This document shows, in pieces, positions 4,111-48,335 of a stretch of DNA of 64,000 nt. Where the stretch lies: IMG/VR virus record IMGVR_UViG_3300034062_004313, positions 64,001 to 128,000 of that record; one strand, 5' to 3'. The DNA is from a virus. Both the position numbers and the translations under genes were made by a program. Under the pieces are notes generated by a model. The model did not search any database. It saw only the letters and a program-made list of their open reading frames with translations, and was not told the DNA's origin. How positions within the stretch are numbered: position 1 is the stretch's first letter; every line of letters starts with the position of its first letter.

Positions 4111-4454
4111 AATTGTTTTGTGTTTTCTATTTCAAATACGGATTCAAGAAACCATTCTTTATTAAGACTATCGGGAAGTGTTATTATATATCCCTTTTCA
4201 ACATCTTCTGATTCTTCTGGTTCTTTATAGAACATTGTGAATTCAATTTCACATGGGTCATCACCATTATCAAGAAGATTTAAGAAGTCTACTATACGTT
4301 CTTCAGGAATAAATACTTTCTTTCTTAATGATAAGAGTAATTCATCTACAGTTGGACCCACTTTATCATATTTCTTAGATTTTTCCCAATCTTTTTTAAT
4401 CTTTTTTGGATTAGTTTCATCTAAGTATTTCTCTAATTCTTCAAACATGTTCAT
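4107..4454 (-). CDS. hypothetical protein
   Basis: 115-aa acidic ORF in tightly packed array. Confidence 0.65.
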   Translation of the reverse strand: MNMFEELEKYLDETNPKKIKKDWEKSKKYDKVGPTVDELLLSLRKKVFIPEERIVDFLNLLDNGDDPCEIEFTMFYKEPEESEDVEKGYIITLPDSLNKEWFLESVFEIENTKQL

Positions 4455-4656
4455 TTAAATCAAGTTTAACTTTTTCCATTAGTAATATGATTTCTTTCAT
4501 TTCATCTATTGTAATATCAAAGAAATTTTCATCTTCATAATTAAATATAACTCCAATTGGAGTTTTCTCTATATCTCCTAATATTACATCTTTAGATTTA
4601 GAATAAACATAATAACGCTCAAGAAAGTCATTATAATAAAAAGGTTTTAATTCCAT
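4441..4656 (-). CDS. hypothetical protein
   Basis: 71-aa ORF in array. Confidence 0.6.
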   Translation of the reverse strand: MELKPFYYNDFLERYYVYSKSKDVILGDIEKTPIGVIFNYEDENFFDITIDEMKEIILLMEKVKLDLNEHV

Positions 4657-27723: not shown

Positions 27724-30500
27724 TGGCGCAAACTAAAATGATATGGAGCAGTGATTTGTATAAAGGATTTAAAACAAATTCTGCCCAACAACTAAAAATA
27801 GACGACCTTCTTCCTTTTAATTTCTTAGTGGAAAAAGAAAAAGGACCGGATTGGATAAGAGCTGTAGCAGATTTCTATGAAACTGCTGGATGGGTTAATG
27901 TAGAAAAGAAAGCTTACGGTATTCAAAGAAATTTTGATTTACGTTATTCAAAGCTGAATCCATCCGATTATATTGTTGGGCCATCTCACTATGATTATTA
28001 CTTAGCTGCTGGACTTGATGTTGCTATTGGAGAAACTTCTCCTATACAACAATTCTATCCATTAGTAGATAATATTGTAGACTTACTAAGAGGAGAATAT
28101 GTTAAGAGAGATAATAGTATGTTAATTGAAGTGATAGACCCATATTCTCAAAATGAACTATTTGAAAAGAAAGAGAAAGAATTTGAAGGAGTGATGATGA
28201 GTTATTTAGAAAAACAGATACAACTCAATCTTCAAAAATCAGGACTTGCTCCATCTCAAGACCAAAACTTAAATCAACAATACGAACAGAGTTATCAAGA
28301 TGCTATGAGACAACTTACAGAAGTTGAAATGGCATCTAAAAAATATAGAACCACAGGACAAAAGTGGGCTGAAAAGGTTTTAAAGGTACATGACCAAAGA
28401 TATAATTTACACGAATTAGAACCAGATGGTTTTGAAAGCTCTCTAATATCAGATAGATGTTTTTATCATATTGACTTATTAGAAGATGATTTTAAATTAG
28501 AACTTATAAATGTTAAGTGGTGTGATTATCACAAGGGACCAAATGTTAAATATGTTTCAGAAGGAGACTACTTTCTTTGGTTTGAATTTATGAGCAGTGG
28601 CCAAATTATAGATAAGTTTGGTACAAGAATGGAAGAAAAGGATATAGATAAGCTAAAAGAAGTTTATTTAAAAACCTCAAATCTTGTTGTACCCGATGGT
28701 CAAAGAGCTATACAAGGTGCTTATTATGACCATAGTAAACCTTGGAGTGAAGCTACAGATTTGAATCCTAATATGAACAATGCTTTATTAGGTAAAGAAC
28801 TTGCTTACTCCTACATGCGTTCTCCAAACTTTGACCACAATGAAGATGTGGATATACTAAATCCTGTTTGGGGAAGAAGAGTGACAGGTAAGCCACAAAT
28901 GTTTAGAGTGATGAGACTCTATTGGAAGAGTATGAGAAAGATTGGTTGGCTTACTAAAATAGATAGGTCAGGAGTTATGTCATATAATGATTGGGTAGAT
29001 GAACATTTTGTAGTGACAGAAGAACCTAAATATGACCACACTTTAATAAAAGAAAAGAAGAAGGATAATTTATTATATGGAGAACATATTGATTGGACAT
29101 GGGTTCCTCAATGGAGACATGTGATTAAAATTTCTCCAAATCAAAAGCATACATTCTGGATGAATTGGAATGAAACATTTGAAACCATATATATTGATGG
29201 AGCACCTGTTAAGTTTCAATTTAAAGGAGATAAAAGTCCATATGGATGTTTACCACCTGTTGAAGGTGCTGAATTTAGCTGGATGAATACTGGACCAGTT
29301 TCTTTAGTAGATAGACTTAAACCAAAGCAAATACTTTATAATATTTGCATGAATAAAGTACCTAAAAAGATATTGGAAGATTTTGGATTAAAACTCGGTG
29401 TACATAATTCTCTTGTTACAAATGGTTCTACATCTGTTCAATCTGAAGTTGACCCACTTATGGAATTTGAAGAAAGACTTAGAGAATCTCCAATATTTAA
29501 TTATAGTACAGATATGGATACATTGAGAGCTATAGGACAACCTCCTAGACCTGAATTGTATAACATGTCCACTGTACAAGATGCTCAAGCATATTTACAA
29601 TTGGCAACATTTGTTAAAGAGAGTGCTGGTGAAGATGTTGGTATAACAAGACAACGTACAGCTAAGATGCAAGCTTCTGAAACTGCTACAGGAATACAAC
29701 AAGCAATAAATTATTCTGAAACTCAAACAGAGAAATATTTTGAGAATTACAGTAATTTAATGACAAGAGTGAGACAGCGTATGTTAGATGCTGCTCAATT
29801 TTATAGCACATTTGTTCCTTCTTCAAGAGATATATATCTTAATGAATATGAAGAGAATGTATTTCTTGAAATGGATGGGATGCAAAATCTGCTTCCACAA
29901 TATTTAATAAAGGTGACTTCCAGACCAAATGTTAAGGAAGCCTTGAAACAAATTAAACAATTCCTATTCGAAGAAAATACTCTTCCTATAAAACCTTCTG
30001 ATAAGATACAAGCTTTCTTTAATAATAGTCAGGCAAGAATAATAGAACTTTTCAAAGAAGGTGAAGCAGAACAAGTTCTTAGAGAAGATAAACAAAGAGA
30101 ATTTGAACAATCTATGCAACAAGAAAAACTTGCTCAACAAGAAAGATTAGAACAAGATAAGAGAGAAAGAGAAGATAATAATAAAGAACTTGATAGAGAG
30201 AGCAATGAATATATTGCTTCTATAAGAGCATTGGGTGGAGTTCAAACTGATGCTAATGTAGACGGTACATTAGATGCTGCTCAAAATATGCAAATATTAA
30301 TGAAGCAAAAAGAGATGCAAAATAAAGCAATGCAACTTATAGATGAAAGACAATCCAAACGTCAAGAAGCTATAGAGACTAATCTACTTGAAAGAGAGAA
30401 GATTGCTGGTAAACTTGAAGAGACAAGAATGAAAACTGAAGCTCAGAAGTTTGTTGCAAAAGAAAACAAACAAAAGCATGAAGTAAAGAAAAGGAAATAG
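27723..30500 (+). CDS. portal protein
   Basis: 925 aa; LRGEY.KR, GITRQR, ETATG..QA...S..QTE motifs; coiled-coil C-terminus; synteny. Confidence 0.85.
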   Translation: MAQTKMIWSSDLYKGFKTNSAQQLKIDDLLPFNFLVEKEKGPDWIRAVADFYETAGWVNVEKKAYGIQRNFDLRYSKLNPSDYIVGPSHYDYYLAAGLDVAIGETSPIQQFYPLVDNIVDLLRGEYVKRDNSMLIEVIDPYSQNELFEKKEKEFEGVMMSYLEKQIQLNLQKSGLAPSQDQNLNQQYEQSYQDAMRQLTEVEMASKKYRTTGQKWAEKVLKVHDQRYNLHELEPDGFESSLISDRCFYHIDLLEDDFKLELINVKWCDYHKGPNVKYVSEGDYFLWFEFMSSGQIIDKFGTRMEEKDIDKLKEVYLKTSNLVVPDGQRAIQGAYYDHSKPWSEATDLNPNMNNALLGKELAYSYMRSPNFDHNEDVDILNPVWGRRVTGKPQMFRVMRLYWKSMRKIGWLTKIDRSGVMSYNDWVDEHFVVTEEPKYDHTLIKEKKKDNLLYGEHIDWTWVPQWRHVIKISPNQKHTFWMNWNETFETIYIDGAPVKFQFKGDKSPYGCLPPVEGAEFSWMNTGPVSLVDRLKPKQILYNICMNKVPKKILEDFGLKLGVHNSLVTNGSTSVQSEVDPLMEFEERLRESPIFNYSTDMDTLRAIGQPPRPELYNMSTVQDAQAYLQLATFVKESAGEDVGITRQRTAKMQASETATGIQQAINYSETQTEKYFENYSNLMTRVRQRMLDAAQFYSTFVPSSRDIYLNEYEENVFLEMDGMQNLLPQYLIKVTSRPNVKEALKQIKQFLFEENTLPIKPSDKIQAFFNNSQARIIELFKEGEAEQVLREDKQREFEQSMQQEKLAQQERLEQDKREREDNNKELDRESNEYIASIRALGGVQTDANVDGTLDAAQNMQILMKQKEMQNKAMQLIDERQSKRQEAIETNLLEREKIAGKLEETRMKTEAQKFVAKENKQKHEVKKRK

Positions 30501-35261: not shown

Positions 35262-37457
35262 ATGGAAAATTTTTCATTCCACGTTCCCTTCTACGTTGTA
35301 AACGGAGGAATTGCTACAAGCGGTCATTCTGCTGATTTAACTCCCGGTAAAGTGGGACTATTTGATAGGCAAACATTTAGTGTTGCTACATCAAGTGGTA
35401 ATGGTAAGGAGTTTTTTCTTGCTCAAGGTAGAATTGGTGGACTTGATTGGTATGGTAACAAAGTAAAAGAGAGTCACAAATCTCCATTCTTCATGGGTAA
35501 GGATGTAGTAGATATGTATAAAGTGACCCCTAAGAGAATCCAAAATGAAGAGTGGGTTCTTGGATATAATGGTGCTGCTTCTTCTAAAGGATTGGTTTAT
35601 GAAAAAGATAAACCTGTAAGATTCAAGTTTGAATTTAATGGAGAACCTGCTTATAGATTCTTTGGAGGTCCTAAAACTTATGTAGTTTCACACACACCTG
35701 ATAAAGATTGTTCGACTCTTTGTGATGGAGGTTGTGATGATTTAACATCTGACCCTAAAGCAGAAACTATGAAATTGATTGATAAAATCAATAATCATAC
35801 AGAACTTAGTAAATTTGGAGTTACAGCAAAACTTAAAGCAAGTGATTATATTGCTGCTACTGCTAACATGGAAAAGTTCAGATTGAACGTATGTGATGCT
35901 GGTGATAGTGTAGCTCTTCAACAAGTACAATCTCAATATCCTGCACTTAATGTAGTAAGAGTTGCAAGAACAGGAAATACATCAACTTATGAAGTGTGTG
36001 TAGTTTCTACTGAAGGAGATGATACTCCTGCTGCATTCACTCAAAGTGCTTCTGTAAGCATGGCAGTATGTGGAAGTTGTAGTTCATTAACAGGTTCAGT
36101 TGATGCTCCTGCTCAAGATTGGTATCTTATTGAAAGACCATTAGCTGGTACTGAAAGTTTGATAGATGATAATGCTAAACTTGCATATGCTCAAACTGTA
36201 GCTGCTACTTATTTTGGTAAGAGTTTTAATTCAACTAATGATATTAATGCTACTACTGAAACTATTACTAAAACCGCACATGGGTTTTCTATAGGTCAAG
36301 CTGTTGTATTTTCAGGAACTGCTCCTACAGGATTAACTAATGGTATTACATACTATATAATTACTGCTGGATTTACTGTTAATGCATTTAGAGTAGCTTT
36401 AACAAGAGAGGGGTCTGCTGTAAATTTAACTGCTGCTGTTGGTACAGGTGTTGTAACTCCTGCTCCTGTACAATTCTTAGCTAATACTGGTGCAACTGCT
36501 CTTATTAAAGTACCTGTTCCTTATGGTACAACTGTTACTGCATTGCTTTCTGACGTAGTTACATTCTCTCATACTCAAGAAGCTATGTGTGAATTTACTG
36601 CTCCAAGTTCAATTGCTTGGGTTGCTGCTGGTACTGGTATAAGGTCTACAAGAACTATGAAAATTAGTGGTATAGTAAGACCCGATTGTAATGCAAATGG
36701 AGATAGAATTGCTGATATTACAGATATAGTTTCTGGTGTTAAAGGTGTATATGGCACTCCTATAAAAATTGCTGGTACAGCTTGTGCTGATGATTATACT
36801 GTTACTCAATATAGTGATGACTGCTTGGAAGAAGGATGCCTTACATCTAATGTAACATTCACTTATGCTGAACTTCCTGCTTTTGAAGGTAGAAGTTGGG
36901 AACTTGTTCCTGCAAGTAATGTTGCTGGAGAAGGAGCTAAATACGGTATAGTTGTTACTGCTGGATATTTGGATATTCAATTTGGTAACTGTAGCTTTGA
37001 CCCAACTGATTACTATGAAGTAATGCCTGTTAAAATGGAAATTAGTTTGCTTACAGAAGATGGTACTGCTTGTGATTTTAGCACATTACCAACTATCACT
37101 CAAACTAGGTATGGTCAAATTTCAAGAGCTTCCGGTGAATATGTTATTAGAGAAGCAACTTCTAAACTTGATGCTTATCAAAAAGATACTGACCAATTCA
37201 GCCTTAATCCAAGGATGAGAGAAGCTTTCGACATGAACATTTTACAACAAGTTGAAAGAAGTGCATTCTACAATCTGTATTATGTTACTTACTACGCTTC
37301 ATATGGTAAAACAAATAGAAAGGGTGAACAAGAGAAATTTACAACAATCTTTGCTGTAAAAGAAACTGACCCAATTGCTGCTACTTTAGAATCTCAAATT
37401 TTGAGCGTTCTTACAGCTAAATCTGCTGATAAAGTAACATTAAGAGTAATTGATTAA
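35262..37457 (+). CDS. abundant virion protein (auxiliary capsid protein candidate)
   Basis: 731 aa, beta-rich, followed by a strong terminator. Confidence 0.55.
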   Translation: MENFSFHVPFYVVNGGIATSGHSADLTPGKVGLFDRQTFSVATSSGNGKEFFLAQGRIGGLDWYGNKVKESHKSPFFMGKDVVDMYKVTPKRIQNEEWVLGYNGAASSKGLVYEKDKPVRFKFEFNGEPAYRFFGGPKTYVVSHTPDKDCSTLCDGGCDDLTSDPKAETMKLIDKINNHTELSKFGVTAKLKASDYIAATANMEKFRLNVCDAGDSVALQQVQSQYPALNVVRVARTGNTSTYEVCVVSTEGDDTPAAFTQSASVSMAVCGSCSSLTGSVDAPAQDWYLIERPLAGTESLIDDNAKLAYAQTVAATYFGKSFNSTNDINATTETITKTAHGFSIGQAVVFSGTAPTGLTNGITYYIITAGFTVNAFRVALTREGSAVNLTAAVGTGVVTPAPVQFLANTGATALIKVPVPYGTTVTALLSDVVTFSHTQEAMCEFTAPSSIAWVAAGTGIRSTRTMKISGIVRPDCNANGDRIADITDIVSGVKGVYGTPIKIAGTACADDYTVTQYSDDCLEEGCLTSNVTFTYAELPAFEGRSWELVPASNVAGEGAKYGIVVTAGYLDIQFGNCSFDPTDYYEVMPVKMEISLLTEDGTACDFSTLPTITQTRYGQISRASGEYVIREATSKLDAYQKDTDQFSLNPRMREAFDMNILQQVERSAFYNLYYVTYYASYGKTNRKGEQEKFTTIFAVKETDPIAATLESQILSVLTAKSADKVTLRVID

Positions 37458-37474
37458 TAACCCTTAATAATAAT

Positions 37475-37511
37475 AAAAGGTGGTAGGCAGTAAAAGTCTG
37501 CCACCTTTTTT
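37475..37511 (+). terminator. intrinsic terminator
   Basis: AAAAGGTGGTAGGC-AGTAAAA-GTCTGCCACC-T6. Confidence 0.85.
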
Positions 37512-37554
37512 CATAATAACTTTTTTAGTATAAATAAATAGAATATATTATACT

Positions 37555-38079
37555 GTGAATCCAGAATATGTTATAGAAATTACAAAAGACTTTAATCCTA
37601 AGATTATAGAGATTAAGGATTTTTCTATTTATCCAAGTGAACCTGAAAATCTTTTATTGGAAATTTTATCACCAACTAAGAACAAATGGGTAACTTATAA
37701 TATAGTAAAGAATAAAGGTTTTATAGCAAATTCTGTAAATCTTAAACTTAGTTCTACATTACAAAATCTTCCTGATGGTGTATATGAGATAAAGATTTCT
37801 CAAAAGCCAAATTTTGCTACTCATAATCTATTTTATTACTTTCATACTAAAACTCTTGAAAGTACTTATTATAAGAATCTTAATGAATTATATTCAGAAA
37901 GGTGTGAAATAACAAAAAGAGAATTTGAAGAGAATAGATATAAACTCCTTATGATAGATATGGATATTGCAGCTATAAAATATATGACTGAAATAAATCA
38001 TGATAAGGATAAGGCTAAAGAAATTTATGAAAAAGTAAAAGAAGATTTGAAAAGTTATGAAAAATCCTGTGGATGTTAA
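37555..38079 (+). CDS. virion protein (tail hub candidate)
   Basis: LPDGVYEI motif; ends in CGC. Confidence 0.55.
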   Translation: MNPEYVIEITKDFNPKIIEIKDFSIYPSEPENLLLEILSPTKNKWVTYNIVKNKGFIANSVNLKLSSTLQNLPDGVYEIKISQKPNFATHNLFYYFHTKTLESTYYKNLNELYSERCEITKREFEENRYKLLMIDMDIAAIKYMTEINHDKDKAKEIYEKVKEDLKSYEKSCGC

Positions 38080-38227
38080 ATCAAAATATGCTGAATGGTT
38101 CTATCTAAATGCCTTAGAAAATTTATATTTTGTTAAGACAGGAATAGATAAGAAGGATTTAACAAAAAGAATTGATGATTTTTTAAAATTTAAGCTTAAT
38201 AAATATAATGATTCCTGTACAACTTGA
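38057..38227 (+). CDS. 56-aa small ORF (MKNPVDVKSKYAEWFY...)
   Basis: translated by hand; bridges the gap, overlapping both neighbours. Confidence 0.45.
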   Translation: MKNPVDVKSKYAEWFYLNALENLYFVKTGIDKKDLTKRIDDFLKFKLNKYNDSCTT

Positions 38228-41496: not shown

Positions 41497-41543
41497 AGAA
41501 TTAAGATGTTGGAAACACGTTAACAATGAATTAACACAACATA

Positions 41544-41575
41544 TTTGATTATATAAAATTATTACACTATATTAC
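41544..41575 (+). promoter_or_regulatory. probable promoter of tRNA operon 1
   Basis: TTTG-N20-TATATTAC (degenerate -7 element). Confidence 0.5.
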
Positions 41576-41584
41576 AATATAATT

Positions 41585-41665
41585 ATGAAATACGTAGTAA
41601 CACATACAACATGTCCACAGTGGTTTACACCGACAATATCGGGAGGGGCTTTGTATGTATACTAA
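41585..41665 (+). CDS. attenuator leader peptide 1 (MKYVVTHTTCPQWFTPTISGGALYVY)
   Basis: codons 6-17 are only Thr/His/Cys/Pro/Gln/Trp/Phe, the tRNAs of operon 1; 3' end pairs with the terminator arm. Confidence 0.88.
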   Translation: MKYVVTHTTCPQWFTPTISGGALYVY

Positions 41666-41687
41666 GAAATAGCTGTGTAGTAACATC

Positions 41688-41715
41688 AACCCTCTGAGAA
41701 ATCGGAGGGTTTTTT
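41688..41715 (+). terminator. attenuator terminator 1
   Basis: AACCCTCTGA-GAAA-TCGGAGGGTT plus T tract just before tRNA-Pro; 41678-97 can instead pair with 41639-64. Confidence 0.9.
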
Positions 41716-41719
41716 ATTT

Positions 41720-41813
41720 CTAGTTGTGGACGAGAGGTTTATGTCATTAGTCTTGGAAACTAATATCTGCACACAGATGGTGTGGGTCAAGGGTTCGACT
41801 CCCTTCAACTAGA
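41720..41813 (+). tRNA. tRNA-Pro(UGG) with long variable arm
   Basis: acceptor CTAGTTG/CAACTAG, A73; anticodon arm TTAGT-CTTGGAA-ACTAA; T loop TTCGACT. Confidence 0.8.
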
Positions 41814-41823
41814 CTTTTAATTT

Positions 41824-41896
41824 GCCTTACGAAGCTTTTATGGATGAAGTGTACTCTTGTAAAGTACGGAACTGGACTCGATTTCCAGCTAAGGCT
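41824..41896 (+). tRNA. tRNA-Thr(UGU)
   Basis: GCCTTA/TAAGGC acceptor; GTACT-CTTGTAA-AGTAC. Confidence 0.8.
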
Positions 41897-41902
41897 CAAA
41901 TT

Positions 41903-41975
41903 GGAGAAGAAGCTAACTTGGTAGAAGCGTTAGACTGAAAATCTAAAGGAGTTGGTCCGAAACCAACCTTCTCCG
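41903..41975 (+). tRNA. tRNA-Phe(GAA)
   Basis: GGAGAAG/CTTCTCC; TTAGA-CTGAAAA-TCTAA. Confidence 0.85.
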
Positions 41976-41977
41976 CT

Positions 41978-42052
41978 AAATACTTAATGAAACAATAAAG
42001 GAACAAAGGGGTCCGGGTAGAAATACGTTAGCGCCCATTGATTTAAGTATTT
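41978..42052 (+). ncRNA. unknown ~75-nt structured RNA within tRNA operon 1
   Basis: closing stem AAATACTTAA/TTAAGTATTT; GC-rich core with GTA-GAAA-TAC tetraloop. Confidence 0.45.
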
Positions 42053-42057
42053 TTTAT

Positions 42058-42129
42058 TCCTATGTGGTGTAATGTAACATCCACGCCTTTGAAGCGTTGA
42101 GATTGGTGGTTCAAGTCCATCTATAGGAA
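42058..42129 (+). tRNA. tRNA-Gln(UUG)
   Basis: TCCTATG/TATAGGA; ACGC-CTTTGAA-GCGT; T arm GGTGG-TTCAAGT-CCATC. Confidence 0.82.
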
Positions 42130-42131
42130 CT

Positions 42132-42206
42132 GTCTAAGTGTTCTGACTGGATTCAGATGAATGACTGTGAATTATTCAAAAAGGGTTCGAATCCCACTTA
42201 GACCCA
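42132..42206 (+). tRNA. tRNA-His(GUG)
   Basis: GTCTAAG/CTTAGAC; AATGA-CTGTGAA-TTATT; C discriminator; T-stem register imperfect. Confidence 0.78.
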
Positions 42207-42210
42207 ATAT

Positions 42211-42283
42211 ATAGGTACTCATGGCTGGCGTGATAAACAATCTCCAAAATTGTGATTTGTTGAATCGTTCTCAACTACCTATG
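42211..42283 (+). tRNA. tRNA-Trp(CCA), divergent
   Basis: ATAGGTA/TACCTAT, G73; ACAAT-CTCCAAA-ATTGT; atypical T loop ATCGTTC. Confidence 0.7.
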
Positions 42284-42339
42284 CTTTATAGGTCTATATA
42301 CCTATATTTATAGATTATAGGTTTTAAAGGCTATAATTT

Positions 42340-42415
42340 GTCCAGATACCTAATATTGATTTTGGGATAGGTCTGCAACACCTATTAAATATCGGTTTGA
42401 TTCCGATTCTGGACT
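42340..42415 (+). tRNA. tRNA-Cys(GCA)
   Basis: GTCCAGA/TCTGGAC, U73; TAGGT-CTGCAAC-ACCTA. Confidence 0.82.
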
Positions 42416-42429
42416 CTATTAAAAATAAA

Positions 42430-42461
42430 TTTTTTTATTTGAAAAAGATTTCGTATATTTG
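42430..42461 (+). promoter_or_regulatory. promoter of tRNA operon 2
   Basis: -7 element TATATTTG (42454-61) in the same TTTCGTATATTTGC context as the operon 3 promoter. Confidence 0.7.
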
Positions 42462-42486
42462 CTGTATAAATAATAAACATTCAACA

Positions 42487-42567
42487 ATGCAACTTATAAA
42501 TATGATAGTGGATAACGGTATTGGAGCAAACGAGAAGTTTGGCTTCAGGTATTCTATTGTCGTATAA
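42487..42567 (+). CDS. attenuator leader peptide 2 (MQLINMIVDNGIGANEKFGFRYSIVV)
   Basis: codons 4-17 are only Ile/Asn/Met/Val/Asp/Gly/Ala/Glu/Lys, the tRNAs of operon 2. Confidence 0.88.
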   Translation: MQLINMIVDNGIGANEKFGFRYSIVV

Positions 42568-42588
42568 TTACTTACTAACCCGATAAAG

Positions 42589-42619
42589 AATCCTGAGGCC
42601 CATCGCTTCGGGATTTTTT
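42589..42619 (+). terminator. attenuator terminator 2
   Basis: AATCCTGAGGC-CCATC-GCTTCGGGATT plus T tract; 42581-600 can instead pair with 42541-62. Confidence 0.9.
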
Positions 42620-42623
42620 GTTT

Positions 42624-42698
42624 AATCTCGTAGCAAAATGTGGCTTTGCTTCAGCCTTTTAAGCTGACTAAAAATGGGTTCGACTCCCATCGGGATTA
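42624..42698 (+). tRNA. tRNA-Lys(UUU)
   Basis: AATCTCG/CGGGATT; TCAGC-CTTTTAA-GCTGA. Confidence 0.88.
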
Positions 42699-42704
42699 CT
42701 AAAT

Positions 42705-42777
42705 GGCTCTTTAGCTCAGTGGTAGAGCTTCGTTTTTACATGACGAGAAAGCACTTGTCCGATTCAAGTAAGAGCTA
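42705..42777 (+). tRNA. tRNA-Val(UAC)
   Basis: GGCTCTT/AAGAGCT; canonical D arm; TCGTT-TTTACAT-GACGA. Confidence 0.82.
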
Positions 42778-42778
42778 C

Positions 42779-43108
42779 ATGAAATATATATTAGGAATAC
42801 TGTTCTTATTAATTATAGGAACAGCAACAAAAACAGGAATTGCAAGTTATTATCATAACAAGTTTCAAGGAAGGAAAACTGCTAGTGGTGAATTATATGA
42901 TAAACATAAATTAACAGCAGCTTCTAATCAATATAAACTTGGTGATAGTGTAAGAGTAACAAATACTAAGAATGGTAAAAGTGTAAATGTTACAGTAAAT
43001 GACCGTATGGCTAATAATGGAAGACTAATTGATTTAAGTAGAAGTGCTGCTGATAGTCTTGGTTTTATTAAGGATGGTTTAGTTGTAGTTAAAGTTAGTA
43101 TATTATAA
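42779..43108 (+). CDS. rlpA: RlpA-like double-psi beta-barrel protein (lytic transglycosylase family)
   Basis: hydrophobic N-terminus; GIASYY...GRKTASGE.YD...LTAA...VRVTN..NGKSV.V.VNDR...R.IDLS..AA..LG; start moved to ATG 42779 because the longer ORF overlaps tRNAs. Confidence 0.85.
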   Translation: MKYILGILFLLIIGTATKTGIASYYHNKFQGRKTASGELYDKHKLTAASNQYKLGDSVRVTNTKNGKSVNVTVNDRMANNGRLIDLSRSAADSLGFIKDGLVVVKVSIL

Positions 43109-43113
43109 ATATC

Positions 43114-43187
43114 TGTTTTGTAGCTCAGTGGCCTAGAGCGTGAAGCTGTTAACTTCAGGGTCGTGGGTTCGAATCCCATCAGGACAG
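43114..43187 (+). tRNA. tRNA-Asn(GUU)
   Basis: TGTTTTG/CAGGACA, G73; TGAAG-CTGTTAA-CTTCA. Confidence 0.92.
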
Positions 43188-43192
43188 CATAT

Positions 43193-43277
43193 TGTGGGAT
43201 GGTGTAATTGGTAACACGCAAGGCTCATAACCTTGAGACAGAAAATGCTAGCAAGGGTTCGAATCCCTTTCCCGCAA
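43193..43277 (+). tRNA. tRNA-Met(CAU) with extended variable region
   Basis: TGTGGGA/TCCCGCA; CAAGG-CTCATAA-CCTTG. Confidence 0.82.
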
Positions 43278-43282
43278 CACAA

Positions 43283-43355
43283 GCAGTATAGGCAGATTGG
43301 CTTATGCACCTCACTTCCAATGAGGACATGGTGGGTTCGATTCCTACATGCTGCA
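43283..43355 (+). tRNA. tRNA-Gly(UCC)
   Basis: GCAGTAT/ATGCTGC; CCTCA-CTTCCAA-TGAGG. Confidence 0.88.
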
Positions 43356-43402
43356 CAAAAATTATATTATGAAAAATTCTTTAAAAGAAGGTGAAGAGAT
43401 AT

Positions 43403-43475
43403 ACTCTCATCTTCTAGTTGGTCAGGATAACACACTTTCAATGTGTTGACACGGGTTCAAGCCCCGTTGGGAGTG
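43403..43475 (+). tRNA. tRNA-Glu(UUC)
   Basis: ACTCTCA/TGGGAGT; ACACA-CTTTCAA-TGTGT. Confidence 0.88.
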
Positions 43476-43485
43476 CTTTAAAAAT

Positions 43486-43559
43486 GGTAGATGGGTCTGC
43501 TGGATGAAGATGTCGGTCTGTCGAACCGAAGATGATGGGTTTGAATCCCATATCTACCG
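43486..43559 (+). tRNA. tRNA-Asp(GUC)
   Basis: GGTAGAT/ATCTACC, G73; TCGGT-CTGTCGA-ACCGA. Confidence 0.85.
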
Positions 43560-43564
43560 CATTA

Positions 43565-43639
43565 GGACTTGTAGCCAAGTTGGTAAAGGCCCTTGACTCA
43601 TAATCAAGAGATGCAATGGTTCGAGACCATTCAAGTCCA
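43565..43639 (+). tRNA. tRNA with CAU anticodon, probably Ile2 (lysidine); Met not excluded
   Basis: GGACTTG/CAAGTCC Ile-like acceptor; CTTGA-CTCATAA-TCAAG; leader 2 has two ATA codons. Confidence 0.75.
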
Positions 43640-43644
43640 CATAT

Positions 43645-43716
43645 AGGAATATAGTAGAAGGGTTATCACAATTGACTGATACTCAATTAATATAGGTTCG
43701 AATCCTATTGTTCCTA
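43645..43716 (+). tRNA. tRNA-Ile(GAU)
   Basis: AGGAATA/TGTTCCT; ATTGA-CTGATAC-TCAAT. Confidence 0.85.
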
Positions 43717-43721
43717 CATTT

Positions 43722-43794
43722 GGGGATAAAGCTCTAGCGGATGAGCATCTGCCTTGCACGTAGAAGGTTACGATTTCGAGTGTCGTTATCTCCA
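43722..43794 (+). tRNA. tRNA-Ala(UGC)
   Basis: GGGGATA/TATCTCC with G3:U70; TCTGC-CTTGCAC-GTAGA. Confidence 0.88.
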
Positions 43795-43818
43795 CATAGG
43801 GGTTCGGAAAATAATTAG

Positions 43819-43854
43819 CTACATCTCTTTATTAATAAGGGTTGTAGCTTTTTT
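43819..43854 (+). terminator. terminator ending tRNA operon 2
   Basis: AGCTACA.CTCTT...AAGGG.TGTAGCT plus T tract. Confidence 0.75.
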
Positions 43855-43930
43855 ATTGTCTCAAATATTGTAATAATTTGCGACATAATTTATTTTTTGT
43901 CAGGTTATAACCTTTCTTTATCTTTGTTTT

Positions 43931-44098
43931 ATGAATTGGCATATACTACCTGTAAATGATATAGAATATCATGAAGAATCTACCACTTGTAAGTGTGAAC
44001 CACAAGTAGAATTTATAGAAGGAGATATGCTAATTATACAAAACTCTTTTGATGGTAGAGAAGGAGTTGAATGGGTAAATGAAATTTTAAATAAATAA
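43931..44098 (+). CDS. 55-aa hypothetical protein (MNWHILPVNDIEYHEESTTCKCEPQ...SFDGRE...)
   Basis: translated by hand; H..H..CxC pattern; TATCTTTG element 4 nt upstream. Confidence 0.65.
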   Translation: MNWHILPVNDIEYHEESTTCKCEPQVEFIEGDMLIIQNSFDGREGVEWVNEILNK

Positions 44099-44130
44099 TT
44101 TGGAAAATTCAAAATAATTTCGTATATTTG
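44099..44130 (+). promoter_or_regulatory. promoter of tRNA operon 3
   Basis: TTTG-N20-TATATTTG, full Bacteroidota consensus. Confidence 0.8.
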
Positions 44131-44134
44131 CTTT

Positions 44135-44203
44135 ATGAAAACATTATCACTATATAGTTCCTCAAGTTATCTCTTATTAAGAGACAGGGATTGTATTGTG
44201 TAA
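44135..44203 (+). CDS. attenuator leader peptide 3 (MKTLSLYSSSSYLLLRDRDCIV)
   Basis: codons 4-15 are only Leu/Ser/Tyr, the tRNAs of operon 3. Confidence 0.88.
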   Translation: MKTLSLYSSSSYLLLRDRDCIV

Positions 44204-44231
44204 ATAGCTATAAGCTTTTAGCTCCCCTAAC

Positions 44232-44263
44232 AATCCCTTGTCTTTCCAGATGAGGGATTTTTT
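44232..44263 (+). terminator. attenuator terminator 3
   Basis: AATCCCTTGTCT-TTCC-AGATGAGGGATT plus T tract; 44230-43 can instead pair with 44182-94. Confidence 0.9.
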
Positions 44264-44266
44264 ATT

Positions 44267-44339
44267 GGCTCTATGACGTAATCGGCAACCGTCTTGGCTT
44301 TAGACCCCAAGTTTTCCAGTTCGAATCTGGATAGAGCTA
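44267..44339 (+). tRNA. tRNA-Leu(UAG) lacking a long variable arm
   Basis: GGCTCTA/TAGAGCT, A73; TTGG(C)-TTTAGAC-(C)CCAA. Confidence 0.75.
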
Positions 44340-44394
44340 CAAATTAGCAGCCCTCTATGGATAATTCTATTGACGAATAGAATATGGGCAAAAT

Positions 44395-44477
44395 ATTCCT
44401 GTGGTGAAATGGTGAGACACGGCAGACTTAAAATCTGCTACGGAGAAACGTTGCTGGTTCGAATCCAGTCAGGAATA
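44395..44477 (+). tRNA. tRNA-Leu(UAA)
   Basis: ATTCCTG/CAGGAAT; GCAGA-CTTAAAA-TCTGC; variable arm present. Confidence 0.9.
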
Positions 44478-44480
44478 CTT

Positions 44481-44565
44481 AGCAGAATGTCAGAGTGGTT
44501 TATTGTGATAGTCTTGAAAACTATTGGGTGTAAAAGCTCCTTGGGTTCGAATCCCAATTTTGCTG
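44481..44565 (+). tRNA. tRNA-Ser(UGA)
   Basis: AGCAGAA/TTTTGCT, G73; ATAGT-CTTGAAA-ACTAT; variable arm. Confidence 0.88.
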
Positions 44566-44569
44566 CAAT

Positions 44570-44658
44570 AGAAGATTGTGTGAGTGGCTTAAACAACCAG
44601 TTTGCTAAACTGGCGAGGGATTAAAACACCTCCATTGGTTCAAATCCAATATCTTCTG
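44570..44658 (+). tRNA. tRNA-Ser(GCU)
   Basis: AGAAGAT/ATCTTCT, G73; CCAGT-TTGCTAA-ACTGG; variable arm. Confidence 0.9.
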
Positions 44659-44663
44659 CATAT

Positions 44664-44756
44664 TGTGTTGTAACGGCAGTAGACTGTAAATCTACTCTGC
44701 ATAACAAATTGTCGTACTGGTCTCGCAGTAAGAAGGTTCGAATCCTTTCAACACAA
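44664..44756 (+). tRNA. tRNA-Tyr(GUA) without a D arm, with enlarged variable region
   Basis: TGTGTTG/CAACACA, A73; GTAGA-CTGTAAA-TCTAC; canonical T arm; only 8 nt between acceptor and anticodon stems. Confidence 0.7.
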
Positions 44757-44782
44757 CATTAACTTATTATTAACTATAGACA

Positions 44783-44814
44783 TTTGACTATATAAAGTAA
44801 ATAGTCTATTTTTG
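44783..44814 (+). promoter_or_regulatory. Bacteroidota sigma promoter for a small RNA
   Basis: TTTG-N20-TATTTTTG with a GACTAT/ATAGTC inverted repeat. Confidence 0.7.
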
Positions 44815-44818
44815 TATT

Positions 44819-44956
44819 GTACAAATTCCCAACCGTCATAGGAGATTTGTATTTAATTAACAATAACTATATATTCGATTGATGTAACTTTGTTCTTAGG
44901 AACGCAACTTGACGGTTGGGACCCCTTGTACTTAATTGTATGAGGGGATTTTTTTT
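44819..44956 (+). ncRNA. candidate ~140-nt small RNA with its own promoter and terminator
   Basis: 12-bp stem TCCCAACCGTCA (44827-38) / TGACGGTTGGGA (44910-21); terminator CCCCTTGTAC...GTATGAGGGG-A-T8. Confidence 0.6.
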
Positions 44957-45054
44957 GCAGACATCCGAGGTTTTTCTTTCCTTCTTTTACGTCCTCCACA
45001 AAAATAAAAGAGTGTCATTAAGATAGTATAGTATATTACACTTGGTATATTATA

Positions 45055-45290
45055 TGATAGGATGTAGAAAAATCAGCAATGTCTAAGGTGACAACTGGAC
45101 CTGAACGAAATTATCAGCAAAAACTACATTCCTCCGTGAAAAATAAAATCATCTTATAGCTGATAATTATTTGTAGATGATTGGCAGGACATGGGAATCT
45201 TAGGTTGACAATATGTTTATAGGAGTATGTGTTAACTATAAATACATTATCCCAACAGGGGAAGACCTTGTTCAGGATAGACCCCCTTAT
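45055..45290 (+). ncRNA. candidate multi-stem structured RNA
   Basis: no credible ORF; stems 45109-18/45159-68, 45100-06/45270-76, 45147-54/45175-82, 45060-67/45124-32. Confidence 0.4.
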
Positions 45291-45316
45291 GTAAATTAAC
45301 AATAAAATGTAAAACT

Positions 45317-45622
45317 ATGAAAAACCACAAAATGACATCATATCAATTCATGATGTTAATGCAAGAATTACCAAATCCAATGTATTATGCTAGAAATGGA
45401 GCTAATGTAGGATTTAGAGTAAAAGTAGGATATTTAAAGAAGTCCATTGATAATACTCCTACAATATTAATAAATCCTAATTCTCAACCTATGAAGATGG
45501 CAGAAGTTGAACAGGTAGAATTTGAATTAGTTCCGAACAATACTATTTGGTATTGGCAACCTGTAGAACCAATTACTATAATAACATTAGATAAGAAAGA
45601 GTACATTAAAAATTGGGAATAA
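45317..45622 (+). CDS. hypothetical protein
   Basis: 101-aa ORF. Confidence 0.65.
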   Translation: MKNHKMTSYQFMMLMQELPNPMYYARNGANVGFRVKVGYLKKSIDNTPTILINPNSQPMKMAEVEQVEFELVPNNTIWYWQPVEPITIITLDKKEYIKNWE

Positions 45623-45930
45623 TGAATATAATAAAATGGTATAAAAGAGTATTTAGAATTCTTACTATAGAAGAATGTAAAGAATTAGGATTAGTACATT
45701 CTCATAATATATATGGTGATAGTATTAATCATTTAAATTGTAGAAGTATTTGGAAAGATGAAAAGGATAGAACATATAGGTGTGAAAGTTTAATACCTAC
45801 TATAGGAGTACTAGATTTATGGATTTTAAAAATGAAAAATCAAGATAAAGTACAACCAATAACTCAAGAAGAATATAATAAAATAAGAGATGAAGAATTT
45901 GAAAGGCTCAAGACTTTATATTCGCCTTAA
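45613..45930 (+). CDS. hypothetical protein
   Basis: NIYGD.INHLNCRSIW motif. Confidence 0.65.
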   Translation: MGIMNIIKWYKRVFRILTIEECKELGLVHSHNIYGDSINHLNCRSIWKDEKDRTYRCESLIPTIGVLDLWILKMKNQDKVQPITQEEYNKIRDEEFERLKTLYSP

Positions 45931-45967
45931 CAAATAATAGTGTAATTTTGGCTTCTAAATAAAAATC

Positions 45968-46288
45968 ATGAAAGTATTAACAGAAGGACATTATTATGAA
46001 CTAGAACATTTTGAAAAAGATGAATCGGGTAGTTCAGAAAGTTTACAATTTATCGAAAAGGTTCCAAAAGGTGAAGGGAAAGTACAAGATTTAGTAACAG
46101 TAAATAATGGAACTACAAATGAAGAAGTTCTTAAAGTTCTAATAAATAGAATGAACTATTTACAAGCAAAATTTCCATGTAGAGAAAATGCTATTGTAAT
46201 TACAAAACTTGAAGAAAGTCTAATGTGGTTAGAAAAAAGAACTGTTGATAGAATAGCTAGAAATGTAGAAGGTAAACAATTAAAATAA
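45968..46288 (+). CDS. Tad1-like anti-defence sponge protein
   Basis: NGTTNEEVL.VLI.R...LQ..FPCRENA..ITKLEE.LMWL..R..DR..RNVEG resembles the recalled Tad1 C-terminal signature. Confidence 0.7.
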   Translation: MKVLTEGHYYELEHFEKDESGSSESLQFIEKVPKGEGKVQDLVTVNNGTTNEEVLKVLINRMNYLQAKFPCRENAIVITKLEESLMWLEKRTVDRIARNVEGKQLK

Positions 46289-46296
46289 AATAAACT

Positions 46297-46512
46297 ATGA
46301 AAAAACAATTATTTACGTATGCTGTATTATTCCATCAGCATGAAGAGAAAGAGGGAAAATTGGAATACAAAGAAACACTTATTCTTGTAGAACCAAAAGT
46401 GATTTTAGCAAAGAATAGTAATGAAGTAGCATTCAAAGCTACAAGAGACGTACCAGAACAATATGCAGGATTTTCAGAAAATGTAGAAATTATAGTACGC
46501 CCTTTTAAATAG
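46297..46512 (+). CDS. small hypothetical protein ending IIVRPFK
   Basis: 71-aa ORF; possible frameshift extension. Confidence 0.7.
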   Translation: MKKQLFTYAVLFHQHEEKEGKLEYKETLILVEPKVILAKNSNEVAFKATRDVPEQYAGFSENVEIIVRPFK

Positions 46513-46711
46513 CTCCCCCTTAATGTGGGATAGTGGGAGCAAAGGAGTATGGGAACAATTAGTAGACCCACCTAAATATAAAAGTACTTTCCAAAATTAT
46601 ATGGGTACAACTACAAATTTAGTAGGACAAGCAATAAACACTTTGACAACAGGAACATCAATATCATATAACATGGCAGATGCAATGTCATTCACAAATT
46701 AAAATCAAATT

Positions 46712-46876
46712 ATGAAAACACTAACAAATCTATTTACAAGCAACCCATCTTACATGAAATGGGGTAATGAAAGAATTGCAAAAAGAACAGGGCTGAAACC
46801 AAAAACAGTAGAGAAATTCAAAAAGAATCCCTTGTATAAGATAATGAAAACCCAATATCTTAACGAGATTAATTAG
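46712..46876 (+). CDS. 54-aa basic HTH-like protein (MKTLTNLFTSNPSYMKWGNERIAKRTG...)
   Basis: translated by hand; resembles the N-terminus of 47019..48335 (NP..L..G..K..LA.RLG). Confidence 0.55.
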   Translation: MKTLTNLFTSNPSYMKWGNERIAKRTGLKPKTVEKFKKNPLYKIMKTQYLNEIN

Positions 46877-46926
46877 GAAATGTCGCAAAAAAGGCGTATA
46901 TTGTTATGATATGCGCTTTTTTATTT

Positions 46927-46998
46927 GGCTCCTTAGTTAAATGGATATAACCGCAGAATTCTAATCTGCATTTGGGAGTTCGATTCTCTCAGGGGCTA
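46927..46998 (+). tRNA. tRNA-Arg(UCU)
   Basis: GGCTCCT/AGGGGCT; GCAGA-ATTCTAA-TCTGC. Confidence 0.88.
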
Positions 46999-47018
46999 CG
47001 AAATCTTAAAAATAAATT

Positions 47019-48335
47019 ATGATTATAACACAAACAATGCAAAAGTTTATTGACAATCCGAAGATGTTAGAGAGTGGATATTGCTCAAAAGCAAAATTAG
47101 CTCAAAGACTTGGAACAACAATAGACGATATTACAGAATCAAGGTTTAAAGTGAAACAAATGATGTCTTCATTAGACCATGCTCAAGAGTTCTTTAAAGA
47201 ATTAAAATCAGAAATTGTTAATGAACATACTACAAGAGTAGATAATGAAAAGGGTACTATAACATCGGATGTAGAAACTACATTTGAACCCAAGAATGAT
47301 ATTGAATTAGCTGAATTACATAAGATTGATTTAACAAAATACAAAATAAGTACATATTGGTCTAAACTAAAGAGCAATGGTAAATTCACTTCATCTGTAT
47401 TAGCTACATTAAGAAATATTGATAAGGATATTCCTAAACAAAAAGAATCATTAATAGAAGAAATAGATGAATATTTTGGTAGTAAAAAAGCTATTGAAAA
47501 TTATAGATTCTTCACAAGAGAAATTGATAAGGATAGAAAAACTGCTAAAAATACAGATGGTCAACTATTAGAAATATCCATTCCTGATTTACACATTGGT
47601 AAAATGTCTCATAGAGAAGAAACAGGGGAAGATTATGATTTAAAAATTGCATCTGCAAGATATAAGAATGCTATAACTCAACTATTAAAAACAGCCAATT
47701 TAGATAATGTATCTGATATATTACTACCCATTGGTAATGACTTGTTCAATGTAGATAATCAGTTCTCAACTACTACAGGTGGTACACCACAGGATTGTGA
47801 TAGTAGGTTCCACAAGATGGTAGGAGCAGCAAAAGAACTCCTTATAAATACAATAACAGGGTTAAGTGCATTTGCAAGAGTACATGTTCTTATAGTACCA
47901 GGCAATCATGATGAAGTTACAACATTTATGTTAGGTGAAATATTAGAAGCATGGTTTCATAATGATAGTAACATAACTGTAAATAATACAGCAAAACTTA
48001 GAAAATACTTCCAATTTGGAAAGAATTCTTTCCTTTATACTCATGGAGACAAAGAAAAACATGGGGATTTAGGATTGATATTTGCTACAGAAGAACCTAG
48101 ACTTTGGGCTGATACTAAATACAGATTTGTAAAACTTGGTCATCTTCACAAGCAAAAGAAAATAGAATATATAACAACAGACACACTTCAAGGGTTCCAA
48201 ATAGAAATACTTCCATCACTAAGTTCTGCTGATAAGTGGCATTATGGAAAAGGTTTCTTAGGAGCAAAGCAAGCAAAAGCCTATCTCTATGATAAAGAAC
48301 TTGGGGAAATTGCACAGTATACACACACTGTTTAA
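47019..48335 (+). CDS. calcineurin-like metallophosphoesterase with N-terminal extension
   Basis: PDLH, GND, PGNHD, THGD, GHLH motifs. Confidence 0.85.
   Translation: MIITQTMQKFIDNPKMLESGYCSKAKLAQRLGTTIDDITESRFKVKQMMSSLDHAQEFFKELKSEIVNEHTTRVDNEKGTITSDVETTFEPKNDIELAELHKIDLTKYKISTYWSKLKSNGKFTSSVLATLRNIDKDIPKQKESLIEEIDEYFGSKKAIENYRFFTREIDKDRKTAKNTDGQLLEISIPDLHIGKMSHREETGEDYDLKIASARYKNAITQLLKTANLDNVSDILLPIGNDLFNVDNQFSTTTGGTPQDCDSRFHKMVGAAKELLINTITGLSAFARVHVLIVPGNHDEVTTFMLGEILEAWFHNDSNITVNNTAKLRKYFQFGKNSFLYTHGDKEKHGDLGLIFATEEPRLWADTKYRFVKLGHLHKQKKIEYITTDTLQGFQIEILPSLSSADKWHYGKGFLGAKQAKAYLYDKELGEIAQYTHTV

Follow-up and report, generated by a model that had tools for sequence, protein, structure and literature searches.

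A candidate leader-peptide attenuator in front of a Leu/Ser/Tyr tRNA operon in a phage genome

What does a 22-codon open reading frame (ORF) with a run of leucine, serine and tyrosine codons do between a promoter and an intrinsic terminator, directly in front of a lake phage's genes for transfer RNAs (tRNAs)? This question is raised by positions 44099-44756 of the window analysed here, i.e. the 64,000 nucleotides (nt) that form bases 64001-128000 of the 155,874-base-pair (bp) IMG/VR virus record IMGVR_UViG_3300034062_004313 (rated 100% complete by CheckV). The tRNA genes all lie in a single plus-strand array (41720-46999), and the element in question heads its unit 3, which holds the genes for Leu, Ser and Tyr. 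A first-pass annotation of this DNA had proposed an attenuator sensing these three amino acids. Run statistics, mutually exclusive RNA structures, a model of ribosome position, two metagenomic relatives, two sister units of the same genome and the cultured Cellulophaga phage phi38:1 agree with this proposal in silico. We assign a probability of about 0.78 to a ribosome-mediated leader-peptide attenuator of the trp/thr/ilv type, which would open the Leu/Ser/Tyr tRNA operon when decoding of the cognate codons is slow.

Codon run, promoter and RNA structures of the leader

A short ORF with its own start and stop codons occupies the 5' leader of the operon and carries a run of codons for the amino acids linked to the genes behind it (Table 1). 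Codons 4-15 read TTA TCA CTA TAT AGT TCC TCA AGT TAT CTC TTA TTA, exactly as described in the first-pass annotation. Leu, Ser and Tyr together account for 25% of the six-frame codons and 19% of the gene codons, and runs of at least 12 such codons occur twice in the six frames of the whole genome: once in this leader and once in antisense orientation at 30155-30211. The position of the run in front of matching tRNA genes is not due to chance. Codons 4-8 (TTA TCA CTA TAT AGT) contain one cognate for each of the five downstream anticodons, and where the phage genes more often use TCT and CTT within the respective boxes, the leader has the synonyms TCA and CTA; it favours exact cognates of the phage anticodons. 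The TCC and CTC codons of the run are readable by the phage tRNAs only through U34:C wobble.

The operon consists of tRNA genes only, and its targets are thus neither the amino-acid biosynthesis genes nor the synthetase genes that are controlled by all the classical attenuators named below. The leader codons had been matched to Leu(UAA), Leu(UAG), Ser(UGA), Ser(GCU) and Tyr(GUA). Four of these assignments correspond to called tRNA genes, while the fifth gene is only Tyr-like and aberrant. It was called by neither ARAGORN nor Rfam, relaxed thresholds included, and its fold comprises an 8-bp acceptor stem, an anticodon arm (GTAGA/CTGTAAA/TCTAC) and a T arm. We accept 44662-44756 as a putative Tyr(GUA)-like gene, with the caveat of its aberrant D region. 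A normal D arm is absent from this gene, and its variable region is 36 nt long. The tRNA-Leu(UAG), in turn, has a short variable loop and A73, and its homologue in one of the relatives described below (L126) is 88 nt long.

The ORF is preceded by a promoter of the Bacteroidota sigma-A type. Within the window, the pattern TTTG-N19-21-TAnnTTTG has 8 matches, compared with 2.46 expected, and none of 100 shuffles reached 8; the promoter core recurs at unit 2 (42449-42463). The ATG lies 4 nt past the -7 element, since TATATTTG ends at 44130, and in this the first-pass annotation was correct. In Flavobacterium psychrophilum, the sigma-A box TAnnTTTG occupies positions -12 to -5 (PMC9723704), which would therefore place +1 on the A of ATG 44135. 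Motif and spacing thus fit a predicted start on the ATG, and the two relatives have 3 additional nt: their ATG follows the box by 7 nt, and a 3-nt leader, with +1 located 3 nt upstream of the ATG, would therefore be expected in both. From this geometry, a leaderless messenger RNA (mRNA) starting on the A of ATG 44135 is plausible in the window phage.

Between the ORF and the tRNA genes lies an intrinsic terminator, not named in the first-pass annotation, whose T-rich tract ends 1 nt before tRNA-Leu(UAG). The tract reaches the first tRNA and leaves no room for a further promoter, and transcription of the tRNA genes must therefore cross the terminator. The folding of the leader gave two further structures. 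The first is a protector hairpin formed by segments 1 and 2 (-16.1 kcal/mol), and the second is an antiterminator formed by segments 2 and 3, with a core of -21.6 kcal/mol and an extended form (44169-44258, reaching onto the 3' arm of the terminator) of -32.2 kcal/mol. A pairing of 44182-94 with 44230-43 had been noticed from the letters alone; the fold returns it as 44181-44194 with 44230-44244, with one bulged base, and in the model it is this antiterminator. Protector, antiterminator and terminator share segments and are mutually exclusive, so that the leader, as folded, has a four-segment design of the trp type. Our initial idea of a three-segment, default-ON leader was replaced by the four-segment reading after the folding, although the ribosome-free behaviour stays ambiguous.

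The ribosome was modelled by masking 28 nt around the A-site codon, one codon after another, and for every position the terminator-pair probability was calculated with ViennaRNA. Without a ribosome this probability was 0.92; it fell to 0.00-0.03 when codons 3-12 occupied the A site and stood at 0.91-0.96 for codons 13-23 (codon 23 being the stop). The antitermination window coincides with the Leu/Ser/Tyr run, and it moved by no more than one codon when other footprint sizes were used. When the sequence upstream of segment 3 was dinucleotide-shuffled 150 times, no shuffle gave any position with a terminator probability below 0.1. In the mask model, the leader thus combines a mutually exclusive antiterminator and terminator with an arm that a translating ribosome can reach.

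From these elements we infer where transcription starts, that the ORF is translated, that ribosomes stall and in which direction the control works in vivo, as follows. Host RNA polymerase would start at or beside ATG 44135, as the promoter geometry suggests, and a ribosome would translate the 22-codon leader. When charged Leu, Ser or Tyr tRNA is scarce, the ribosome would stall within codons 4-12, covering segment 1 and leaving segment 2 free; the latter would pair with segment 3, no terminator would form, and transcription would read through into the Leu(UAG), Leu(UAA), Ser(UGA), Ser(GCU) and Tyr(GUA)-like genes. When decoding is fast, the ribosome would reach codons 13-22 or the stop codon and cover segment 2, so that segments 3 and 4 would terminate transcription 1-7 nt ahead of the first tRNA. 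As the tRNA products would relieve the stall, the loop would be self-limiting and would supply tRNAs on demand.

Relatives, sister units and phage phi38:1

Two relatives, both metagenomic, were found through the neighbouring proteins: L031 (Logan SRR23971560), with approximately 87% nucleotide identity to the window, and the more distant L126 (JGI 3300050715), in which a neighbouring protein is 60% identical. Both show the same order of promoter, 22-codon ORF and terminator, followed by Leu(tag), Leu(taa), Ser and Tyr tRNAs. The gene upstream of the promoter is different in each contig (a 55-amino-acid (aa) gene in the window, a 71-aa ORF in L031 and an RNaseH-like gene in L126), and therefore the module belongs to the tRNAs; despite these different neighbours, the promoter TTTG-N20-TATATTTG is kept in both relatives. 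Codons 5-15 encode Leu, Ser or Tyr in all three versions. Where the run varies (codon 10, TCA to TAT; codon 11, AGT to TTA or TCG; codon 15, TTA to TCA), it always stays within this set, even though the codons differ by 1-3 bases and the change of AGT to TCG swaps the Ser codon boxes. These variable codons lie in or beside unpaired parts of the protector fold, and RNA pairing therefore does not explain the Leu/Ser/Tyr constraint. Indels are absent from the ORF of both relatives; they occur close ahead of the ATG and close behind the stop codon.

The RNA elements are likewise retained. Segment 2 is 100% conserved in L031 and L126, and in L126 both terminator arms differ and still form an 11-bp hairpin. 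In the mask model, L031 switches at codons 2-12, and L126 switches fully at codons 7-11 and partly at codons 3-6 and 12. L031 carries the Tyr(GUA)-like gene at 95% identity, and one pair of the acceptor stem has changed in a compensatory manner; a canonical tRNA-Tyr(gta) is found at the same position in L126 and in a further contig, L125. It was also observed that the four Leu/Ser tRNA genes of L031 have no BLAST-detectable similarity to those of the window, whereas identity is 86-95% for the leader and the Tyr gene.

Other searches for relatives were less productive. No syntenic relative was obtained from IMG/VR, whether the queries were the neighbour proteins (438, 381 and 55 aa) or two conserved DNA words, and a single scan of JGI metagenome contigs with the DPBB protein encoded in the array yielded only bacterial RlpA loci without tRNA arrays. 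A 21-mer of segment 2 had no match in the genome_contigs collection, and BLASTn of the region against GenBank phages matched tRNA genes only. Of the remaining contigs, L025-L029 are 100% identical across the leader, L030 stops just short of the ORF and L131 short of the leader; these were uninformative.

The same arrangement is repeated twice upstream in the array, in units 1 (41585-41719) and 2 (42487-42623), each with a leader ORF and its own set of tRNAs (Table 1). The Thr, His and Trp tRNAs of unit 1 are seen only under relaxed ARAGORN settings. When the three leaders were compared with the three tRNA sets, the matrix was diagonal: the runs for the own set comprised 12, 14 and 12 codons, and those for foreign sets no more than 3. 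Unit 2 switches at codons 9-12 in the mask model.

A second phage was reached through a tRNA BLAST match. This is phi38:1 (NC_021796.1), a cultured member of the Pervagoviridae with a 72.5-kb genome, in which three terminators each abut a tRNA cluster and each follow a repeated promoter and a mini-ORF. Its leaders thus resemble those of the window in the repeated promoter, in the mini-ORF that spells the downstream isotypes and in the terminator that adjoins the first tRNA; leaders B and C also share the 4-nt distance from the -7 box to the ATG. The phage itself belongs to an unrelated family, groups its tRNAs differently and has no sequence similarity to the window phage. The runs of leaders B and C are the longest for their own tRNA sets in the six frames of the 72.5-kb genome, the matrix of leaders and tRNA sets is again diagonal, and leader A switches in the mask model. 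The grouping of the tRNAs differs between the two phages and the composition of the leaders follows it, and the comparison is therefore akin to a natural swap experiment. It also bears on the remark in the first-pass annotation that Leu, Ser and Tyr are the bacterial class II tRNA families. The remark describes this operon, but it is not a principle, because phi38:1 groups Tyr and Ser with Asn, Trp, Phe and Cys; moreover, the Leu(UAG) gene of the window has a class I shape.

The phi38:1 leaders (L128:1731-1866, 3192-3369 and 4435-4586, corresponding to NC_021796.1 ~35283-38138) are unannotated or mis-annotated. Identical copies occur in phage phi40:1, and those of Calle_1-3 have 99.6% identity. 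In GenBank, there are entries of the hypothetical genes gp066 and gp070 for them, and the opposite-strand gp067 for leader B. Infection by phi38:1 depends on host RNA polymerase, and the paper reporting this does not mention the leaders (PMC5335546). In Flavobacterium phage immuto, a small ORF in front of Ser, Glu and Gln tRNAs has neither a cognate run nor a terminator, and the design is therefore not universal.

Table 1. Features of the unit 3 leader and its operon, and the corresponding leaders in sister units, relatives and phage phi38:1 (positions refer to the window).
Feature	Position	Strand	Description
Bacteroidota sigma-A-type promoter	44099-44130	+	-33 TTTG (44099-44102), 20-nt spacer, -7 TATATTTG (44123-44130)
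Leader ORF, unit 3	44135-44203	+	22 codons and stop, MKTLSLYSSSSYLLLRDRDCIV; ATG 44135, TAA 44201-44203
Regulatory run	44144-44179	+	codons 4-15, 12 codons, all Leu/Ser/Tyr
Segment 1 (protector 5' arm, inside the codon run)	44152-44162	+	pairs with 44186-44196; minimum-free-energy structure of the full leader
Segment 2 (3' end of the ORF, codons 16-21)	44181-44196	+	alternative partners segment 1 or segment 3
Segment 3 (antiterminator 3' arm and terminator 5' arm)	44230-44244	+	pairs with 44181-44194
Intrinsic terminator	44232-44266	+	12-bp hairpin (44232-44259) and TTTTATT; terminator scan, -14.6 kcal/mol
tRNA-Leu(UAG)	44267-44340	+	74 nt, class I shape; ARAGORN and Rfam
tRNA-Leu(UAA)	44395-44478	+	ARAGORN and Rfam
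tRNA-Ser(UGA)	44481-44566	+	ARAGORN and Rfam
tRNA-Ser(GCU)	44570-44659	+	ARAGORN and Rfam
Putative Tyr(GUA)-like tRNA	44662-44756	+	aberrant D region; fold with acceptor, anticodon and T arms
Leader ORF, unit 1	41585-41665	+	run THTTCPQWFTPT; before Pro, Thr, Phe, Gln, His, Trp, Cys tRNAs
Leader ORF, unit 2	42487-42567	+	run INMIVDNGIGANEK; before Lys, Val, Asn, Met, Gly, Glu, Asp, Met, Ile, Ala tRNAs
Leader peptide, L031			MNNTSLYSSYLYLLSRDRDCIV
Leader peptide, L126			MKNISLYSSYSYLLSRDRDCIV
phi38:1 leader A			peptide MKTIMNIATDIRTKGVKLLGRSRVL; before Lys, Ile, Gly, Met, Asp, Thr, Val, Arg tRNAs
phi38:1 leader B			run YNNFSWYSNCSFSSYN; before Tyr, Ser, Ser, Asn, Trp, Phe, Cys tRNAs
phi38:1 leader C			run LLHQEPLEQLRLP; before Pro, Glu, Gln, His, Leu, Arg tRNAs

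Points of doubt and other explanations

Several observations weigh against a Leu/Ser/Tyr-sensing attenuator. The evidence consists throughout of sequence analysis and equilibrium folding: the sequence elements, their conservation, the exclusivity of the structures and the match between run and tRNAs are read directly or computed. Unit 1 does not switch in the mask model (terminator probability of at least 0.86 throughout), and neither do leaders B and C of phi38:1; therefore, the model is incomplete or the switch is not fully general. Unit 3 is known in three sequence versions only, and in one of them (L126) the sole TTA codon of the leader lies outside the antitermination window. In the window phage, the Tyr tRNA is aberrant, and TCC and CTC are non-standard cognates of the phage tRNAs. 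As for the predicted start, leaderless mRNAs make up only 4-6% in the Bacteroidota studied: they constitute 5.5% in F. psychrophilum (PMC9723704), and published data for Bacteroides thetaiotaomicron give 3.7% of mRNAs with a 5' untranslated region (UTR) shorter than 10 nt.

The behaviour without a ribosome is a further point of this kind. Before segment 4 emerges, the nascent RNA prefers the antiterminator even when no ribosome is present, and in L031 without a ribosome the antiterminator is favoured at equilibrium (terminator probability 0.15). In the folding model, the ribosome-free state is not robust; the untranslated state may be kinetically ON, and the default may therefore be ON, not OFF.

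This leaves room for an explanation in which the same hardware reports the general status of translation, amino-acid starvation or the early or late stage of infection instead of the tRNA pool. Stalling depends on charged tRNA, and this one signal combines the abundance of the tRNA, the supply of amino acids and the activity of the synthetase in a way that is inseparable by sequence; if the ribosome-free nascent RNA favours readthrough, any loss of translation would open the operon. However, the regulated products are tRNAs, so that the response corrects a shortage of tRNA only, and the three leaders each match their own tRNA subset and not a common starvation signal. We regard this explanation as unlikely, and it is the one that survives best beside the tRNA-pool sensor.

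The leader could also be a structured RNA switch read by a phage or host protein, or by uncharged tRNA as in a T-box, with the ORF being incidental. Codons 5-9 and 12-22 are also base-paired, so that conservation of the nucleotides alone does not prove coding. Nevertheless, the codons that vary are unpaired (in a loop), change by up to three bases and remain Leu/Ser/Tyr codons, indels leave the frame undisturbed, and such a switch would leave unexplained why, in two phages and six leaders, the amino acids correspond to the tRNAs downstream. A T-box or another known RNA family was rejected as a candidate, as the leader has no match to the T-box model (stem I specifier loop and conserved T-box sequence) or another Rfam family at E up to 1 in a search of 41500-47100. 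All in all, a protein- or tRNA-read switch appears improbable.

Least probable of all is an ordinary leaky terminator behind a chance ORF, with the hairpin fixing the ratio of leader to tRNA or ending upstream transcription: AT-rich DNA is indeed rich in short ORFs and promoter-like sites, and unit 1 and the phi38:1 leaders B and C lack a switch in the equilibrium model, but the run is one of two of such length in the genome and stands at the sole place where it matches downstream tRNAs, the same match is found in three units here and three in phi38:1 with different tRNA groupings, the variable codons stay in the set, the frame is conserved and none of the 150 shuffles switches.

Relation to known attenuators and genomic setting

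Returning to the ribosome-mediated attenuator, its closest counterparts are the leaders of enterobacterial amino-acid operons, among them trpL, hisL, leuL and the multivalent thrL (Thr/Ile) and ilvGMEDA leader (Ile/Leu/Val). With these the unit 3 leader shares a short leader ORF with a regulatory codon run, the formation of protector, antiterminator and terminator from four segments, the choice of structure by ribosome position and, as in the multivalent cases, the sensing of more than one amino acid by one leader. It differs from them in its tRNA targets, in its location in a phage of a Bacteroidota-type host, in sampling three amino acids and five anticodons, and in an mRNA that probably lacks a 5' UTR and a Shine-Dalgarno sequence. 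In Escherichia coli, the pheM leader of the chromosomal pheST operon controls phenylalanyl-tRNA synthetase by attenuation and senses one amino acid. Like the candidate described here, it applies leader-peptide attenuation to a component of the decoding machinery and not to a biosynthetic pathway; there, however, the target is a synthetase gene, and here it is tRNA genes. The leader-peptide attenuator pheL has been reviewed (PMC3082878).

T-box riboswitches, too, sense tRNA charging through a choice between antiterminator and terminator, but they bind uncharged tRNA without translation, whereas here a translated ORF is the proposed sensor. Leaderless polycysteine short ORFs of mycobacteria are reported to act as Cys-responsive attenuators (bioRxiv 10.1101/834739). 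They are likewise leaderless short ORFs rich in cognate codons that control their own operon; they belong to another phylum, respond to Cys only and have protein-coding targets. No literature on leader control of tRNA genes or of phage tRNAs was found in a search whose coverage left out most subscription journals. By comparison with these systems, the tRNA-gene target, the phage carrier and the probable leaderless start would be new, while the mechanism is already known.

We lean, with some reserve, towards the wider view that at least two unrelated lineages of Bacteroidota phages gauge decoding speed codon by codon, with one multi-amino-acid leader per tRNA operon, and make tRNAs on demand. 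The roles of phage tRNAs are debated; they have been proposed to compensate for codon usage, to replace host tRNAs that have been degraded or to evade defence systems that cleave tRNAs (PMC12409363). If the wider view is correct, decoding capacity would be what the phage monitors, and the leaders would form a closed-loop homeostat for the translation apparatus and an automatic answer to host defences that cleave or deplete particular tRNAs. Readthrough of the attenuators would report which tRNAs limit an infection, so that the role of the tRNAs would become testable. Leader-peptide attenuation would also be found to act on RNA genes, in phages and in a phylum without Shine-Dalgarno-led initiation. 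The presence of the same design in the cultured phi38:1, whose host is Cellulophaga baltica, makes it experimentally accessible now.

As regards the carrier, the phage genome has a G+C content of 28.9%. Its tail-ring protein gave a weak match to CrAss_Ring_1 (24.8 bits, under the cut-off), and the homologous ring genes of the relatives bear CrAss_Ring_1 and CrAss_Ring_2. These matches, here and in the relatives, make a crAss-like phage with a Bacteroidota host probable, and such a host fits the promoter type of the leader.

Further features were observed around the leader. Directly upstream of unit 3 lies the 55-aa gene (43931-44098), in front of which, within 43896-43931, TATCTTTG is followed by 4 nt and then the ATG, so that the gene shares the leaderless geometry predicted for the unit 3 leader. 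Homologues of the 55-aa protein are mostly found in many unrelated phage contexts and are syntenic in L031 only; because of these unrelated contexts, it is regarded as a mobile small gene. A gene for an RlpA-like DPBB protein (42779-43108; Pfam E 1.9e-17) is located within tRNA operon 2, 1 nt past a tRNA-Val. Farther downstream, a 106-aa protein (45968-46288) has a weak match to an Acb2/Tad1 hairpin domain (24.2 bits vs a cut-off of 27) and is possibly an anti-CBASS/Thoeris sponge.

Finally, the region 44783-44955 comprises a promoter followed by an RNA of approximately 135 nt that ends in a terminator. In this RNA, 44828-39 and 44911-22 form a closing long-range stem of 12 bp, and compensatory changes were found at 7 pairs across four phages. 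It contains no conserved ORF and has no Rfam match, and it is a candidate for a new structured non-coding RNA or leader. In L031 (2641-3027) and L125 (411-788), an additional gene of approximately 125 aa, HNH-like by eye, is inserted between tRNA-Tyr and this structured RNA.

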